From a virus (lineage: Duplodnaviria > Heunggongvirae > Uroviricota > Caudoviricetes), in the IMG/VR virus record IMGVR_UViG_648276643_000011: a stretch of DNA of 33,508 nucleotides. One strand, 5' to 3'. The notes under the pieces were generated by a model. That model saw only the letters and a list, made by a program, of their open reading frames with translations, was not told the origin of the DNA and did not search any database. Shown here one piece after another: positions 6,276-13,095 of this stretch. A program made the position numbers and the translations under genes. Every line of letters starts with the position of its first letter. The first letter of the stretch is position 1.

Positions 6276-9098
6276 ATGACGGCAGAGTACATCAGGGACT
6301 GGCAACAACCGCGCCACGCAGTGGGGCGTGAAGGAACGGGGATCCCCGCTCCTGAATCTGCGCTTTCCTCCTGGCTGGATGCCTACCGGGCAGAGAACGA
6401 GCGCCGCCAGGAAATGGCTGATGCGGCGTTCTCCGCCACACCGCTGGGCAACCTGATTAATAAAAGCCTGGACGCACAGGAAAAACAGGACAAAGCCATC
6501 ACACTGGCAGGAGACGCCAGAAAACAGGCACGCGGCGCGGTGGATGAAGCCATGGCCTCGCTGCGCCTGCTGCCGTCCTATTTGCGCGATCCACTTATTC
6601 GTCACCTCTCCTTCCTGCGCAAAAAACAGGAAGCCGATCGCCGGAAAGGCAAAAAGAGCTGGCAGGCAGAACGCTATGCACGCGGAACCCTGCGCAAGAT
6701 ATTCGATCGCATAAACCGCACCGACAGCCGCTGGCTGACACCGGGTTATCGCTCCCTTGCCGGACGCGAACGCCTGGACGATTTGCTTTACCTGCCGCAG
6801 CTCAACAAGCACCAGATACAGACGCTGGCTACCATGACGGCGGCGATGTTCAGCAGCACCTTCGAAAAACTCTGCGATGGTTTTGGCGCGACCGATGGCG
6901 AGCTGACCATGGATGTAACCCTGAAGGCGTATCAGATGCTGGCCCGCATGGCGTTACACCTGCACGCCATGCCTCCACATTATGACGCACTGACAACAGA
7001 CAAAGACCGGAGGAACGAACCGGACACGGAGCTGCTGCCAGGCGCAATCCTTCGCCTGACCTGTGCGGAATGGTGGAAACGCAAACTGTGGCTGTTACGT
7101 TGTGAGTGGCGGGAAGAACAACTTCGCGCCGCCTGTCTGGTTTCCAGAAAAACATCGCCCTATCTGAGCCAGGACGCGTTAAGCGAGTTTCGCGCACAGC
7201 GCGAGAAAACACGCGATTTCCTGAAAAGTTTCATGCTGGAAAACGAAGACGGGTTCACGATTGATCTCGAGACAGTGTATTACGCGGGAGTAAGTAACCC
7301 GGTTCACCGTAAGGCAGAAATGATGGCCACCATGAAGGGGCTGGAACTTCTGGCCGAAGCCCGTGGCGACAAAGCGGTGTTTCTGACTGTCACCTGCCCG
7401 TCAAAATACCACGCCACAACAGAGAACGGTCATCCGAATCCCAAATGGAACGGGGCCACCATGCGCGACTCCAGCGATTACCTGGTTAACACGTTTTTTG
7501 CGGCGGTCCGCAAGAAACTGAACCGCGACGGCCTGCGCTGGTATGGCATCCGCACGGTGGAGCCTCACCATGACGGCACCGTGCACTGGCATATGATGGT
7601 CTTTGCTCATCCGGAAGAAATCGACACCATTGTGTCCCACACCCGTGATATTGCCATTCAGGAAGATCGTCACGAGCTGGGTGATGATATTACCCCACGC
7701 TTTAAGGCGGAGTACGTCGACGGCTCAAAAGGCACACCGACCAGCTACATCGCCACCTACATCGGGAAAAACCTGGACAGCCGTGCCGTGGATGGCATCG
7801 ACCCGAAAACGGGCAAGCCACGCGTTGACCACGAAACCGGAAAATCAATGGCCGAGAGCGTGGAACGCGCCATCGGCTGGGCGCGCCTTCACCGGGTCCG
7901 CCAGTTCCAGTTTTTTGGTATCCCCTCCCGTCAGGTGTGGCGTGAGCTGCGTCGCCTTGCCAGCCAGATGGCACGCAACCCGGAAGGCCCACAACGGCTG
8001 AAGGATGACGCAATGGATGCGGTTCTTGCTGCCGCTGATGCCGGATGTTTTGCCACCTACATAGAGAAACAGGGCGGCGTACTTGTTCCACGCAAGGACT
8101 ACCTGGTTCGCACCGCCTACGACCTCGCAGATGAACTGAATGATTACGGCGAACAGAGCGTACAGATTTACGGGATCTGGTCACCACTCATCGGGGAATC
8201 CTCTCGTGTGTGCACGCATCCGGATAACTGGAAGCTGGTAAGACGTAAACCGGAAACGGAAGACAGCGCCCGCGAAAATGGTTTTGACCTTCAGGGCGGC
8301 CCTGCCGCCCCTTGGACTCGTGGCAATAACTGTCCCCGTGTACAGGAAACGGACAACAACGGGACAGAACAGCCGGAAGAACGGCCAGCACCGTGGCCGC
8401 AGCTCCCTGACGGCGTTGAAGTGAACGAATGGATGCGCTCACTGAAACGGCACGAACGCCGGGCGCTGATGCGTTCGCTTCGTGACAAACAGGCAAAAAA
8501 CAGCAGTGATGAAATGCAGAGCTGGACACAGAGCCGCAAACAGCAGCGGCCTTTGCCTGATAACCACGAATTACTCGCTAAAGAATGGCGGGAGTCTGCT
8601 GAATCTCTCGGCCTGCATATCGGTGAACAACAGATGCAGCACCTGTTACGGGGCGGCAGTCTGTACGTTGACGGCAGCATCATTGCACCGCAGGGATTTG
8701 AAATTATACGCAAACCGGATACCCGCCCGGACAGCCGAATCACGCAGCTCTGGCAGCGCCTGAGCCGTAATCACGGCGTAAGCAGCACGGAGATCCGCCA
8801 TAACCCGGTCGCCAGCTATCTGGCACAGCTGGGGGCATCAGCCCCTGAAGCCGCCGCACGCCTGGCATCCACACTTCAGCAGGACCAGAACACCATGAAA
8901 ACACCCGTTACCGTGCTTTCTGACATGCTGCGCGCCATCCGCGACGCAGAGCACGCACAGAGAATCAGTGAAACCACTGAACGCGCCCGCCGCAAAGCAG
9001 ACCTGCTGCGGGGTGGCCTGACCAGTGGAAACAATAAACAGACAGAAACGGGACTCACGAATCCCGTAAATGAGCAAAAAACGCGCAGCGATATATGA
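6276..9098 (+). CDS. A: Replication initiation protein A (rolling-circle HUH endonuclease, P2 gpA family) with long C-terminal extension
   Basis: 940 aa; HUH-type motif VHWHMMVF and paired catalytic tyrosine motif TSYIATYIGKN as in P2 A; canonical position before the variable locus. Confidence 0.85.
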   Translation: MTAEYIRDWQQPRHAVGREGTGIPAPESALSSWLDAYRAENERRQEMADAAFSATPLGNLINKSLDAQEKQDKAITLAGDARKQARGAVDEAMASLRLLPSYLRDPLIRHLSFLRKKQEADRRKGKKSWQAERYARGTLRKIFDRINRTDSRWLTPGYRSLAGRERLDDLLYLPQLNKHQIQTLATMTAAMFSSTFEKLCDGFGATDGELTMDVTLKAYQMLARMALHLHAMPPHYDALTTDKDRRNEPDTELLPGAILRLTCAEWWKRKLWLLRCEWREEQLRAACLVSRKTSPYLSQDALSEFRAQREKTRDFLKSFMLENEDGFTIDLETVYYAGVSNPVHRKAEMMATMKGLELLAEARGDKAVFLTVTCPSKYHATTENGHPNPKWNGATMRDSSDYLVNTFFAAVRKKLNRDGLRWYGIRTVEPHHDGTVHWHMMVFAHPEEIDTIVSHTRDIAIQEDRHELGDDITPRFKAEYVDGSKGTPTSYIATYIGKNLDSRAVDGIDPKTGKPRVDHETGKSMAESVERAIGWARLHRVRQFQFFGIPSRQVWRELRRLASQMARNPEGPQRLKDDAMDAVLAAADAGCFATYIEKQGGVLVPRKDYLVRTAYDLADELNDYGEQSVQIYGIWSPLIGESSRVCTHPDNWKLVRRKPETEDSARENGFDLQGGPAAPWTRGNNCPRVQETDNNGTEQPEERPAPWPQLPDGVEVNEWMRSLKRHERRALMRSLRDKQAKNSSDEMQSWTQSRKQQRPLPDNHELLAKEWRESAESLGLHIGEQQMQHLLRGGSLYVDGSIIAPQGFEIIRKPDTRPDSRITQLWQRLSRNHGVSSTEIRHNPVASYLAQLGASAPEAAARLASTLQQDQNTMKTPVTVLSDMLRAIRDAEHAQRISETTERARRKADLLRGGLTSGNNKQTETGLTNPVNEQKTRSDI

Positions 9099-9145
9099 AG
9101 CGCGCACAAAACAGGCAAAAACGGGATTTCAGAATCCCGTAAACG
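9046..9145. repeat. Two copies of a 23 bp palindromic iteron (ACGGGA-N8-TCCCGTAAA), candidate ParR binding / centromere-like site
   Basis: Copy 1 at 9046-9073 inside the 3' end of gene A, copy 2 at 9117-9145 about 30 bp upstream of the parM-like start; each has a 6 bp inverted repeat. Confidence 0.4.
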
Positions 9146-9174
9146 ATTAATTAATCAACATAAGGAAAAGCGAC

Positions 9175-10134
9175 ATGAAAATTTGTATCGACGACGGCTC
9201 CACCAACATCAAGCTGGCATGGACTGAGAACGGCGAACGCCGCAACGCCATCAGCCCGAACAGCTTCAAGTCGGAATGGTCTGCGCCGTTCGGTGGCACG
9301 CAGCCCGCGAACTACATGCTTGATGGCGTGCGCTATGGTTTTGATCCTGTCAGCGATCGCTTTGTCCAGACGACCGACACGCAATACCAATACAGCGATG
9401 TGAATGTCATTGCCATTCATCACGCGCTGGTCAAATCAGGCATCACGCCACAGGAGGTGGATGTGGTTGTCACCCTGCCACTGAGCGAGTATTTCGACAC
9501 AAACGCACAGCCGGACATGGCCAACATCAACCGCAAAAAAGCGAACGTTATGCGCCCGGTGGAGTACCAGAACGGCAAAGCATTCACTATCCGTAACGTA
9601 CGGGTTATGCCTGAATCTATTCCGGCTGGCTTTAAAGCACTGGCTGACATGAGTCCGTTTGAATCCCTGCTGATTGTGGATTTAGGCGGAACCACGCTGG
9701 ATGTGGCAAAGGTTCAGGGACAACTGGCAGGTATCAGCCAGGTGTTTTGCGATCCACACGTAGGCGTTTCCCTGATGGCCGATGCAGTACTGTCGGTGAT
9801 GGCCACTAACGGTATGCGTACCAGTCACCACATCGCCAATACCATTATCGAACATCGCCATGATGAAGCTTGGCTGCGCCAGCACATCCACAATGACGCG
9901 CATTACGCCAGCCTGATGGCGGTTATTCGTGAAAAGGAAGAAACACTGAAACAACGCGTGATCCGCGCGCTGGCGGGTTTTTCGGGTTACGGGCGGGTGA
10001 TGGTTGTCGGTGGCGGAGCGGAGATTGTGGCACCCGCTATCCGCGAAGCCTGCGGGGTTAATGCGACTTTCATCGCGGACGGGGTGCCACAGTTTGCTCT
10101 GGTTAATGGGCTGTACGCAATGGACAAGGAGTAA
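9175..10134 (+). CDS. parM: ParM/StbA-family actin-like ATPase
   Basis: 319 aa; N-terminus MKICIDDGSTNIKLAW matches ParM phosphate-1 motif; further ParM-like blocks (YSDVNV.A.HHAL, MPESIPAG, LI.DLGGTTLD, GGGAE) alignable by eye to plasmid R1 ParM (from memory); RBS AAGGA. Confidence 0.8.
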   Translation: MKICIDDGSTNIKLAWTENGERRNAISPNSFKSEWSAPFGGTQPANYMLDGVRYGFDPVSDRFVQTTDTQYQYSDVNVIAIHHALVKSGITPQEVDVVVTLPLSEYFDTNAQPDMANINRKKANVMRPVEYQNGKAFTIRNVRVMPESIPAGFKALADMSPFESLLIVDLGGTTLDVAKVQGQLAGISQVFCDPHVGVSLMADAVLSVMATNGMRTSHHIANTIIEHRHDEAWLRQHIHNDAHYASLMAVIREKEETLKQRVIRALAGFSGYGRVMVVGGGAEIVAPAIREACGVNATFIADGVPQFALVNGLYAMDKE

Positions 10135-10138
10135 ACCA

Positions 10139-10450
10139 ATGACGACACCAACCAGACGGATAAGTTTCTATCTGAAGCCCGCCGCCGTCAAGAACGAAGG
10201 CGAAGCATGCGCCTGGCTGGACAGCCTTACACCAGAAGCCCGTAAAAACGGCCAACGCGTGGCTTTTCTGGCCGGGCTGGCGCTTCTGAAAATGAATCCG
10301 GCAGAGGCTTACCGACTGGCAGCATGGGCTGACGATGAGGCGTTATCAGTGACACAAACCAGGACAGAACGCCCCCTGTCACAGCCAGTACCAACCGCAC
10401 AGATAACCAGTCAGATGGCCGGAAATATCAGGGCGTTATTTCCTGAATAA
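10139..10450 (+). CDS. parR: ParR-like ribbon-helix-helix adaptor
   Basis: 103 aa starting 5 nt after the parM-like stop with RBS AAGGAG; N-terminal RRISFYLKP ... LDSLTPEARKNGQRVAFLAGLAL and C-terminal NIRALFPE resemble R1 ParR as recalled from memory. Confidence 0.6.
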   Translation: MTTPTRRISFYLKPAAVKNEGEACAWLDSLTPEARKNGQRVAFLAGLALLKMNPAEAYRLAAWADDEALSVTQTRTERPLSQPVPTAQITSQMAGNIRALFPE

Positions 10451-10457
10451 CACAACG

Positions 10458-10477
10458 TCAGGGCGAGTTCGCCCTGA
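10458..10477 (+). other. GC-rich perfect hairpin (TCAGGGCGA-GT-TCGCCCTGA) downstream of the parR-like gene
   Basis: 9 bp perfect inverted repeat 8 nt after the stop codon; no U-tract, so a stability element or protein site rather than a classic intrinsic terminator. Confidence 0.4.
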
Positions 10478-10513
10478 TCTCCATCTCAGAACATAAACAA
10501 GAAGAGCGACTTA

Positions 10514-10762
10514 ATGAGCAAAATCAACTATCAGGCATTACGTGAACGTTATTCACCTGCACCAGTACCAAAATGCCCTATTTGCGGCGAAGAAATGTCA
10601 ATTCAGCGAATATCTGGAGCACAGGTTGTTTATGCCTGCTCCAGTTATGGTGATGATGGAGATTTCAAAGTTGGTCGAACTCTTGTCGACGAACATTATG
10701 AAAAATCACGCGTAACAGTGTTGGATGTCGGGGCCCCTGAAGTATTGGCGCTACTTGATTGA
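10514..10762 (+). CDS. Small putative zinc-binding protein; frame stays open past its TGA stop
   Basis: 82 aa with CPICG ... YAC cysteine pattern; the same frame continues for 45 sense codons after the TGA at 10760-10762, with no conventional start codon in that extension. Confidence 0.45.
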   Translation: MSKINYQALRERYSPAPVPKCPICGEEMSIQRISGAQVVYACSSYGDDGDFKVGRTLVDEHYEKSRVTVLDVGAPEVLALLD

Positions 10763-10987
10763 CTGGAAACCAAAGACAACCGAATCACTGAACTGGAAAA
10801 AATCGCCACTGACTATGCACTTAAATTCCAGAAAGCACAGGACGCATTAAAGTACGCCGCTTTGCTGCATAGCAGGACAGCGCAGCTAAAATACTAACTT
10901 AAAGCGGAAGATTAATACATGGTGAGTCGGGGTAATTTGTTTTTATCCCGACAAATAAACAAAAAAGTGGACTATCTCTGTAGTATC

Positions 10988-11518
10988 TTATTCAGCATCG
11001 TCTCGTGCAGTCTGTGCATACGTCACAACAACGCCCAATGCATTAGTTTTCTTTTCAACATAGATAATATTGTCATATTCATAGTTACCATACGGATAGC
11101 AAATAAGAATATTTTTATGCAGTTCGGGATCATCAACAAACGCTCCGGAACAGCTTCTTGAACTACCAGATGTATACTCATACGGTGCAACATATGATGA
11201 TGTTACTCCTGGTAAAAAATAAGTCACCATCATAAGAGGGATAATCAGGAATATCCCTGTAAGAATGCAAGAGCCAGCATAAACCTTCAGGTATTCCGAC
11301 AGTCCTTTCCAGCCACTTTGCTTCACTACCCCCCTCTTCACCAGAAACAAGGAGAAGAAAAAGGACATACCCATACTACACAAGATGTAATAATTGGATA
11401 TACGCGAATTAAGATATGTAATCCTGTAGATATCTGCCCTCCACCAGTAAAAGAGGAAAATAATCCCTAGCACTGAAACAGTCATGCAAATCAAATAAGG
11501 ATATGAATCTTTCTTCAT
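10988..11518 (-). CDS. AT-rich integral membrane protein (3 predicted TM helices plus soluble C-terminal domain), candidate lysogenic-conversion or exclusion gene
   Basis: 176 aa on the strand opposite the flanking early genes; hydrophobic segments about 10-26, 44-59 and 79-105; lowest-GC segment in the window; at the P2 tin/old position. Confidence 0.55.
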   Translation of the reverse strand: MKKDSYPYLICMTVSVLGIIFLFYWWRADIYRITYLNSRISNYYILCSMGMSFFFSLFLVKRGVVKQSGWKGLSEYLKVYAGSCILTGIFLIIPLMMVTYFLPGVTSSYVAPYEYTSGSSRSCSGAFVDDPELHKNILICYPYGNYEYDNIIYVEKKTNALGVVVTYAQTARDDAE

Positions 11519-11590
11519 GTCTTGCGCTCATTAAAATTTCCCTGCTACGAACAAATTTACCATCCGTTTTTTGCGCAGAAAACAGCACGA

Positions 11591-11623
11591 TGCACACTGC
11601 ACGATAGTGCACAAATTTGCACA
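11591..11623. repeat. Four phased TGCAC(A/G) repeats upstream of the membrane-protein gene
   Basis: TGCACA 11591, TGCACG 11599, TGCACA 11608, TGCACA 11618, spaced 8-10 bp; 70-105 bp upstream of the minus-strand start at 11518. Confidence 0.35.
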
Positions 11624-11998
11624 ATTTTTTTGAACGACTTTTTACCCTTCCGCCCCGCATGGCGGCTGGATCCGTCAAGGATCCGTGCGTGCACAAAAAA
11701 AAGCGTTTTTTCTGCGCGCAGGTGACGGGGGAACAGCCCGCGTTTCAGGGGGTAAATAGCATTCCCTGAGCGATGTCGCAGCGACACAACAGAATGGCTG
11801 TATTTCTCACGCTGAGCGTGAAAAAGACGTGAGGGCTTTTGATTTGATGGGGTAACAGATAAGGCCGCCAAAATCGCACTGAGGCGGCAGGAACATGCAG
11901 TCAACGCGGTGGGATTGCGTAAGAGTCTGACCGTCGATGATGGCAATAAGCTGGAAGGCGTCGTGAAATTATCTGATTGATACAGGAGCTGGAGAGTC

Positions 11999-12048: not shown

Positions 12049-13095
12049 TCAGGCTGTGGGCTGAGTGTCTAACAGTGCGTAAGGGTTAAAGCGGATCACC
12101 TCTTCGCCCAGCCAGTCATTGATGTGCTTCATGGCCTCCATGACGGGCATCAGCTCATTAATTGCGTAAACCCGCGCGGCCTTCTCCACATCACCAAACG
12201 CACTTTTTTCGCCCGGCATCGCCCCCATCAGTTGCGGTGGAACGCGGTGCGCAGCCAGCACATCATCACGGGATGCCGCCTTAACATTCATGAACTCATC
12301 CTTTGCGGTGATCTGCTGGAACGGCAAAATTTGCACCCCTTCTTTGCCCCCGTTGGGCGCATGAATGAGCACGTTTTTAAACGCACCACCACCACGTGCC
12401 CCCTGTAGCGTTTCTTTCAGTGAGTCCATGCTTTCGCGGTTTACCTGCGCTGCACCGATGTAGATGATGCACCCGGCGTGGGAGCCGTTGTCGTAGTACA
12501 GTTTTCTGAACATGTCCGCCGAATGAGACAGGCTGGCCGAGAGTAATGCACCAAGATATTCCGGCATGCCGTAGATTTCCTGGTTAATATCCGGATTCAT
12601 CAGGTGGCACACTTTGCCAGGGCGAAACTGAAACGCGTCCTTACCATCCTGCACATACCACCATGATTCAAGATCGCTTCCGCGTCGCATGTATTTCGCC
12701 AGGGCGTGCCGTAATTTAAGCGGTTCGCCGAGCATATTGCTTCGAAGCTCAAGGAATGCGTTACCGAACACAAACCAGTCCAGCGCCAGCGCCGAGAAAT
12801 CCTGCCGGGAAAGCAGCGGGTGCGGGATGTAGCAACCGAGTAATACATTGCGCTTAAAGTAAAGCGCAGATTGATGCCAGGACGTTTGCCGGGCAGCTCT
12901 TGCCAGACCGTACCAGTCCACCGGGGTTTCATACCACCGCCCGTTATCAGCACAGTACATATTGTCCAGCAGGTCATGCCCGGTCAGGCGGTAAGGACCA
13001 TCAAATGTGAATGCACTGAGCGATGATTCTTTCCTGAGCGCATCAGCGAGATCAATGCGTGAACTCATGCGCACTTTTTTATTTTTTCTGCTCAT
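12049..13095 (-). CDS. Q: Portal protein (P2 gpQ)
   Basis: 348 aa; position and orientation (divergent from O, downstream of P) and by-eye similarity to P2 Q. Confidence 0.9.
   Translation of the reverse strand: MSRKNKKVRMSSRIDLADALRKESSLSAFTFDGPYRLTGHDLLDNMYCADNGRWYETPVDWYGLARAARQTSWHQSALYFKRNVLLGCYIPHPLLSRQDFSALALDWFVFGNAFLELRSNMLGEPLKLRHALAKYMRRGSDLESWWYVQDGKDAFQFRPGKVCHLMNPDINQEIYGMPEYLGALLSASLSHSADMFRKLYYDNGSHAGCIIYIGAAQVNRESMDSLKETLQGARGGGAFKNVLIHAPNGGKEGVQILPFQQITAKDEFMNVKAASRDDVLAAHRVPPQLMGAMPGEKSAFGDVEKAARVYAINELMPVMEAMKHINDWLGEEVIRFNPYALLDTQPTA

Follow-up and report, generated by a model that had tools for sequence, protein, structure and literature searches.

ParMRC of plasmid R1 combines a full-length actin-like ATPase, ParM (structures 1mwk and 4a62), with a ParR adaptor of the Pfam family PF10784. 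Its gene parM precedes parR, and the centromere, parC, lies in cis upstream of parM as ten 11-bp direct iterons around a promoter. An adaptor of the same kind, ParR/StbB of pB171, is represented by structure 2jd3. A phage-borne pair is found in D6, a P1-like phage with an extrachromosomal prophage, in which an R1-type ParM (StbA) is followed by a small StbB and several TCTCA-type iterons lie upstream.

Two further systems serve elements that are carried in a bacterial chromosome. The srpMRC locus of the SXT/R391 elements is a type II partition locus that stabilises the excised, rolling-circle-replicating form of the element and is expressed only on activation (PMC4489591). In the Corynebacterium prophage CGP3, AlpC and AlpA tether circular phage DNA to actin-like filaments; both are induced early and required for efficient replication, and AlpA binds sites upstream of its own operon (PMC4446434). 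For P2-like phages, Rousset et al. (2022) reported a partition system at the hotspot between gpA and gpQ in about a fourth of these phages (PMC9122126).

We analysed a cassette of this type in a 33,508-nucleotide stretch of viral DNA (the window). The window is a P88-like (Xuanwuvirus) phage of the P2-like kind: Escherichia phage P88, Xuanwuvirus P884B11, Citrobacter phage phiSM and other Peduoviridae are 95–98% identical to the region. The original prediction, made from the letters alone, that an integrating P2-like prophage carries a complete ParM/ParR pair between genes A and Q is borne out by our analysis. Its further suggestion of an undescribed system is not, since the pair is annotated in RefSeq, PHROGs and GenBank, is very common and has been published at the same locus (Rousset et al., 2022). 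RefSeq/PGAP uses the names 'plasmid segregation protein ParM' and 'plasmid partitioning/stability family protein', PHROGs families exist for both proteins, and the GenBank entries of phages P88, phiSM, P884B11 and 520873 carry the cassette in annotated form. The GenBank record of phage D6 even remarks on similarity to 'phage P88 StbA'. Our literature searches turned up no work on the function of ParMR in Xuanwuvirus or other P2-like phages. That the cassette exists and where it lies had been reported before.

The ParM ATPase and the ParR adaptor

The two open reading frames lie where they had been predicted, at 9175–10134 and 10139–10450 on the + strand. The first of them, parM (9175–10134 including the stop codon; start MKICIDDGSTNIKLAW), encodes an actin-like ATPase of the R1 type with 319 residues. 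Over its whole length, the protein matches the Pfam families PF06406 (StbA_N, E 3.8e-82) and PF21523 (ParM C-terminal domain, E 1.3e-68), and it also matches PHROG 691, 'partition protein'; a match to the Pfam family ALP_N is marginal (E 6e-6). The R1 ParM structure 1mwk from the PDB aligns to residues 2–316 with an E-value of 2.3e-92. In this alignment, motifs DDGSTN, MPES, DLGGTT and GGGAE are identical, placing D6/D7, E147 and D169 of the window protein at the corresponding positions. We take DDGSTN to be the phosphate 1 motif, DLGGTT (Asp170 in R1) the phosphate 2 motif and GGGAE the adenosine motif, with Glu148 of R1 as the catalytic glutamate. Identity to R1-type ParMs is 50–52%, with 52% for the ParM of an IncL/M plasmid, and StbA of the plasmid prophage D6 is 48% identical. 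Both the profile searches (Pfam) and the structure-database search (PDB 1mwk) therefore favour the predicted assignment as ParM.

The gene is under strong purifying selection. Across 69 distinct sequences, parM has a dN/dS of 0.054, lower than the values for the final 1.5 kb of the essential gene A (0.139) and for parR (0.19), and it is intact in 89 of 89 related loci. An apparent interruption of parM in one locus (L094) was rejected as an artefact of a second short alignment segment. In the copy from Hafnia, ParM is still 95% identical, whereas ParR retains only 73% identity and the upstream DNA has diverged. Since the dN/dS of parM is low, the copies are intact and the Hafnia ParM is conserved, the cassette appears to be in use rather than decaying.

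Only 4 nt separate the parM stop codon from the ATG of parR (10139–10450, + strand), and a GGAG Shine-Dalgarno sequence is situated within the end of parM. The product, a ribbon-helix-helix adaptor of 103 residues, belongs to the Pfam family Plasmid_stab_B (PF10784, E 2.2e-24) and to PHROG 2515, 'partition protein' (E 5e-58). A profile built from eleven ParR relatives matches the pB171 ParR/StbB structure 2jd3 over residues 6–78 (E 1.1e-7). The likeness to the pB171 protein is confined to the shared ribbon-helix-helix domain and is detected at the profile level only; linker and tail differ. As for ParM, the profile searches (PF10784, 2jd3) favour the predicted identity of this protein. BLASTP detected no similarity between the window ParR and the ParR of the IncL/M plasmid, which belongs to the same Pfam family.

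An alignment of ParR sequences reveals the layout typical of such adaptors: the N-terminal DNA-binding domain (approximately residues 1–60) and the C-terminal tail, NIRALFPE, are conserved, and the linker between them is variable. The tail, which may bind ParM, is kept as NI(R/Q)ALFPE across allele groups that share 42–84% identity, and the N-terminal strand RRISFYLKP is the same in all aligned alleles with the exception of the D6 outgroup. ParR alleles are diverse and mosaic, whereas ParM is constant; in many copies, the sequence switches to a second parR allele at position 10193.

With ParMRC of R1, the cassette shares the full-length ParM and its motifs, the order parM–parR, a ParR of family PF10784 and repeats in cis upstream of parM. 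The R1 system, however, is hosted by a plasmid and the window cassette by an integrating phage. D6 resembles the window in having a phage-borne R1-type ParM followed by a small StbB. In P88, P884B11, phiSM and E. coli prophages, the cassette is found in the same context and nothing essential differs: among 14 phage records, it is 94.6–98.1% identical at the DNA level, and ParM is 96.4–99.7% identical at the protein level. What does vary between P88-like copies is the ParR allele and the cargo downstream.

Position beside gene A and distribution

Upstream of parM lies replication gene A (6276–9098, + strand), which encodes a rolling-circle initiator of 940 residues (Pfam Phage_GPA, E 1.9e-131; PHROG 91, 'nicking at origin of replication'). 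The portal gene Q (12049–13095) and the tyrosine integrase gene (1–1002) are both on the − strand. E. coli E5 carries an identical cassette (100%) in a prophage that adjoins yecA on its chromosome. The window copy is itself integrated and not a separate replicon, as it adjoins yecA and an integrase is present.

Of 5426 complete E. coli genomes, 1308 (24%), O157:H7 strains among them, yielded the cassette in a megablast search with 9030–10480, and in 1454 of 1456 places the copy is chromosomal. Every match listed in this search adjoins a gene annotated as 'replication endonuclease'. At least 80% of the cassette is present in 1279 of the 1309 E. coli records with any match, a count for which the query included the last 69 bp of gene A. 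The order gpA–parM–parR–(variable)–Q is constant in Escherichia, Salmonella, Citrobacter, Cronobacter and Hafnia, and, over 48 loci, parM and Q are separated by 806 to 2704 bp. In the window, the cargo to the right of parR comprises a truncated Ead/Ea22-like open reading frame and a putative membrane open reading frame. At the left edge of the hotspot, ParMR adjoins gene A almost invariably, and the variable cargo is situated downstream of parR. The view that the cassette is itself exchangeable cargo thus does not apply within this lineage, in which the A–Q interval varies to the right of parR.

Among 72,556 plasmid records (PLSDB), this ParR was found in seven. Four of these records are between 272 kb and 1.4 Mb in size, one is an IncC plasmid with a gene A–parMR segment and one is a partial Shigella record of 26.8 kb. 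The circular 'plasmid' record NZ_CP148288.1 (34,461 bp), the one apparent exception to integration that we encountered, is a whole P88-like phage genome; in a sister strain of its host, the chromosome contains a left end that is 99.9% identical. Among conventional plasmids, the closest parM reaches approximately 66% at the DNA level. Since plasmid records are few and the best plasmid parM is this distant, the cassette represents a phage-specific ParMR lineage and not a recent capture from a plasmid.

Candidate centromere, transcription and module edges

Two direct repeats of 38 nt precede parM, 82% identical and 73 bp apart from start to start. Repeat unit 1 (9036–9073) lies inside the 3′ end of gene A, whose final 20 or so codons overlap it, and contains a 20-bp palindrome at 9048–9067, ACGGGACT-CACG-AATCCCGT. 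Repeat unit 2 (9109–9146) contains a perfect 8-4-8 palindrome at 9121–9140, ACGGGATT-TCAG-AATCCCGT, which ends 35 nt upstream of the parM ATG. Both palindromes share the core GGGATT-N4-AATCCC. The motif occurs twice in the window and nowhere else in it, with 0.03 occurrences expected by chance. P2 and 186 lack the motif, and we rejected the idea that such palindromes are typical of the ends of gene A in general.

A comparison of 50 distinct upstream sequences showed little or no variation in the GGGATT/AATCCC core, in contrast to the 4-nt spacer, which varies freely. The core is also conserved in the Hafnia variant, in which the stop codon of gene A falls inside the loop of site 1, indicating that the right arm is conserved as non-coding DNA. 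Both ParR alleles compared (the window type and the type of loci L002 and L003) are preceded by the same upstream sites.

The limits of the module can be read from two relatives. Locus L048 has unrelated sequence in place of the gene A tail (window positions 8513–9035), and homology restarts exactly at 9036, such that the repeats are co-inherited with the module. A rare relative without parMR, L005, lacks the region from about 9104 to 10495 and defines the right edge. The module therefore spans 9036 to about 10495.

From their sequence and placement, we infer that the two repeats represent a candidate two-site centromere, consistent with binding by ParR. The arrangement differs from the iterons of R1 in that it consists of two 20-bp palindromes, located partly in the upstream gene and without a detected promoter. 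It also consists of two units instead of an iteron array as in the IncL/M plasmid and phage D6, and such a site may be too small for a filament-capping complex. An equally plausible reading is that the palindromes act as RNA hairpins and not as protein sites. They fold individually with −9 and −10.7 kcal/mol, and long-range pairing between the two yields −33 kcal/mol (z −5). In a covariation check of the two palindromes, the core was invariant and there were no double compensatory changes; single changes favour neither strand consistently. A search for known RNA families in 8700–11700 found none.

A consensus scan detected no sigma-70-like promoter in 8800–11100, an absence that is weak evidence; by eye, a weak TTCAGA-16 nt-ATTAAT overlaps repeat 2. 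A terminator scan found no U-tract terminator between gene A and parM. Downstream of parR, a G+C-rich hairpin (10457–10478) with a 9-bp stem and −16.4 kcal/mol is likely to mark the end of the transcription unit. This hairpin had been considered as a second centromere, a role that we rejected: a different hairpin occupies the place after the other parR allele, which makes a terminator more likely. With no promoter, no terminator between gene A and parM, and a hairpin after parR, parMR may well be co-transcribed with gene A in the early lytic operon, weak as these indications are. ParM and ParR are absent from the supplements of an EHEC proteome study (PMC3210124) and of a ciprofloxacin transcriptome and proteome study (PMC11125564), in which a few CP-933T proteins are listed.

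Possible roles in the phage life cycle

We consider the chances even that the cassette of the P88-like lineage is a functional ParMRC machine that partitions extrachromosomal phage DNA. According to this model, parM and parR would be made together with gene A from the early lytic operon, while the genome is extrachromosomal and is being copied by gpA. ParR would bind the two palindrome-bearing 38-nt repeats at 9036–9146 as its centromere, and ParM filaments, capped by ParR–DNA complexes, would push the circular phage genomes apart. The benefit would lie in having copies in both daughter cells, or well placed, as long as the phage is not integrated: once a cell has been infected but the genome has yet to integrate, following excision, or in a carrier state. 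While the prophage resides in the chromosome, the partition machine would be dispensable. Since the lytic cycle ends without cell division, partition to daughter cells would be useful only in non-lytic extrachromosomal states. Carriers of the cassette include active phages, namely the inducible P88 and the spontaneously active phiSM (PMC6456863).

The logic would be the same as that of srpMRC for excised SXT/R391 elements. srpMRC is the closest functional analogue of the cassette, as its element is normally chromosomal, like the window prophage. SrpM, however, is no more than a distant relative of R1 ParM, SrpR is not homologous to ParR, and the element is conjugative and not a phage. AlpC and AlpA of CGP3 correspond to the window pair in that an actin-like protein and a DNA-binding adaptor are encoded by an integrated prophage, but they belong to another actin-like subfamily and another adaptor type, and their host is Gram-positive. 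The original prediction had argued that an integrating element should not need a partition machine, an objection already answered for srpMRC (PMC4489591) and AlpAC (PMC4446434). 

Partition of extrachromosomal DNA has to be weighed against other roles. The cassette might act as an organiser of replication or packaging similar to AlpAC, its filaments moving or spacing the circular monomers made by gpA during lytic growth instead of serving inheritance; we regard this as possible, albeit somewhat unlikely. P2-type phages package from circular monomers, which we counted in favour of this role, and the cassette is located at the end of the replication operon. A precedent is provided by the CGP3 proteins, whose early induction and requirement for efficient phage replication were described above (PMC4446434). 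The window ParM, however, is an orthodox R1-type partition ATPase, at 50–52% identity, and no relative of AlpC; moreover, P2 and 186, in which the motif is absent, replicate well without the cassette. Long persistence as a low-copy plasmid prophage, i.e., a stable plasmid lifestyle, was suggested by Rousset et al. (2022) (PMC9122126) and would agree with the circular record NZ_CP148288.1 of a whole P88-like phage as well as with plasmid prophage D6, which uses a 48%-identical StbA/StbB. Such a lifestyle is nevertheless improbable in our view, given that all but two of the 1456 E. coli places lie in chromosomes, that the window copy is integrated and retains its integrase, and that the left end seen in NZ_CP148288.1 is chromosomal, with 99.9% identity, in the sister strain. 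In addition, at least five of the seven PLSDB records with this ParR are not free phage episomes, and neither a theta replicon nor copy control is evident.

The location of the cassette in a known defence hotspot, gpA–gpQ (PMC9122126), raises the question of exclusion or incompatibility, in which ParR and ParM made by the prophage would interfere in trans, at the centromere, with related phages or plasmids that enter the cell. The diverse and mosaic ParR alleles beside a constant ParM would be in line with this, but they share their DNA-reading strand and their sites and therefore do not create new specificities. Neither ParM, ParR nor the neighbouring hotspot open reading frames match a PADLOC family (E ≤ 0.01), the consensus scan detected no promoter for expression in the lysogen, and the cassette is fixed, unlike the exchanged cargo of the hotspot. 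Taken together, exclusion is very unlikely. Still less credible is a vestigial relic of a plasmid or phage-plasmid ancestor that has no present function. Although the prophage is kept by integration and the parMR-less variant L005 exists, a dN/dS of 0.054, intact genes in 89 of 89 loci, retention across genera and presence in 24% of complete E. coli genomes are hard to reconcile with decay. We also see a slim chance that the cassette does not serve inheritance, but either excludes superinfecting relatives in trans or uses its minimal two-site centromere, embedded in the replication gene, to organise rolling-circle replication and packaging. If this were true, it would represent a lineage-specific weapon or organiser in the most common lineage of P2-like prophages in E. 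coli.

Our preferred reading remains the partition of extrachromosomal phage DNA. To what was known of the cassette, the present analysis adds the selection on parM, the limits of the module, the candidate two-site centromere, the lack of a detected promoter of its own and the cargo downstream of parR. The cassette, under strong purifying selection, occurs in roughly every fourth complete E. coli genome. It raises the questions of whether the life of P2-like phages includes an extrachromosomal state that depends on partition, whether a type II centromere can consist of two palindromic sites, partly in gene A, and whether the logic of srpMRC and AlpAC extends to tailed coliphages.

Boundaries and alleles of the parMR cassette

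On one viral contig related to the window (L048, 3082–3861), unrelated sequence stands in place of the C-terminal part of replication gene A (8513–9035 in the window). The replacement segment encodes a separate ORF of 157 aa with a CxxC...CxxC zinc-ribbon motif, and the last ~20 codons of this ORF, which overlap repeat 1 (9036–9073), are the same as in gene A of the window. Homology between the contig and the window restarts at exactly 9036.

The chromosome of E. coli CUVET19-1704 carries a rare relative that lacks parMR (L005, 4001–4100); here, the Ead/Ea22-like gene comes immediately after gene A and its repeat 1. This arrangement looks as if about 9104–10495 (window numbering) had been deleted. 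Most of the cassette is missing in only ~30 of the 1309 matching E. coli records.

Within the cassette, parM (9175–10134, plus strand) is 95–100% identical while the parR alleles diverge. The parR gene (from 10193 onward in the window, and in the related loci L002 and L003) falls into several mosaic allele groups, with identities of about 84, 73, 63, 55 and 42%. The groups have the first 18 and last 8 codons in common and differ mostly in the linker. The second parR allele is present in many O157:H7 genomes.

Spacing and pairing of the repeats

In the parC region of an IncL/M plasmid (L098, 1300–1475), the repeat families 5′ of the plasmid parM recur at 72–73 bp, which is also the spacing of the two window repeats (repeat 2, 9109–9146). 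This agreement may be a coincidence or may reflect a shared two-block centromere geometry. When 9030–9175 is folded as RNA, a long-range helix is predicted between the two palindromes (−33.3 kcal/mol; z of −5 versus shuffles), and this helix would enclose the gene A stop codon. The palindrome pair could be an element for mRNA processing or coupling, either replacing the candidate protein-binding site or acting alongside it.

Neighbouring cargo and unusual records

The variable cargo of the gpA–gpQ hotspot is represented in the window by two ORFs within 10514–11518, a stretch of low G+C content (39–43%). One is a truncated Ead/Ea22-like ORF (10514–10762; PF13935, E = 1.7e-17), annotated as a pseudogene by PGAP, and the other encodes a multi-pass membrane protein of 176 aa (10988–11518, minus strand; phrog_1416); neither has a match in PADLOC. 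Two further minus-strand ORFs are located in the interval from the integrase to the HTH repressor; they encode a DUF2511 protein (1008–1355) and a 216-aa protein (1385–2035) with no match in Pfam or PADLOC. This region (1008–2035), also low in G+C (35–42%), may serve as another site for cargo.

A ParM 98% identical to that of the window E. coli prophage is found on a 226-kb contig (NZ_JBQPOM010000071.1) labelled Vagococcus sp. WN89Y, a Gram-positive genus; this assembly is likely contaminated or mislabelled. A circular record of 34,461 bp from E. coli Z1323PEC0009 (NZ_CP148288.1), deposited as a ‘plasmid’, contains a complete P88-like phage genome including the integrase. The circle may represent the phage as an episome, its replicative form after excision or a product of the assembly.
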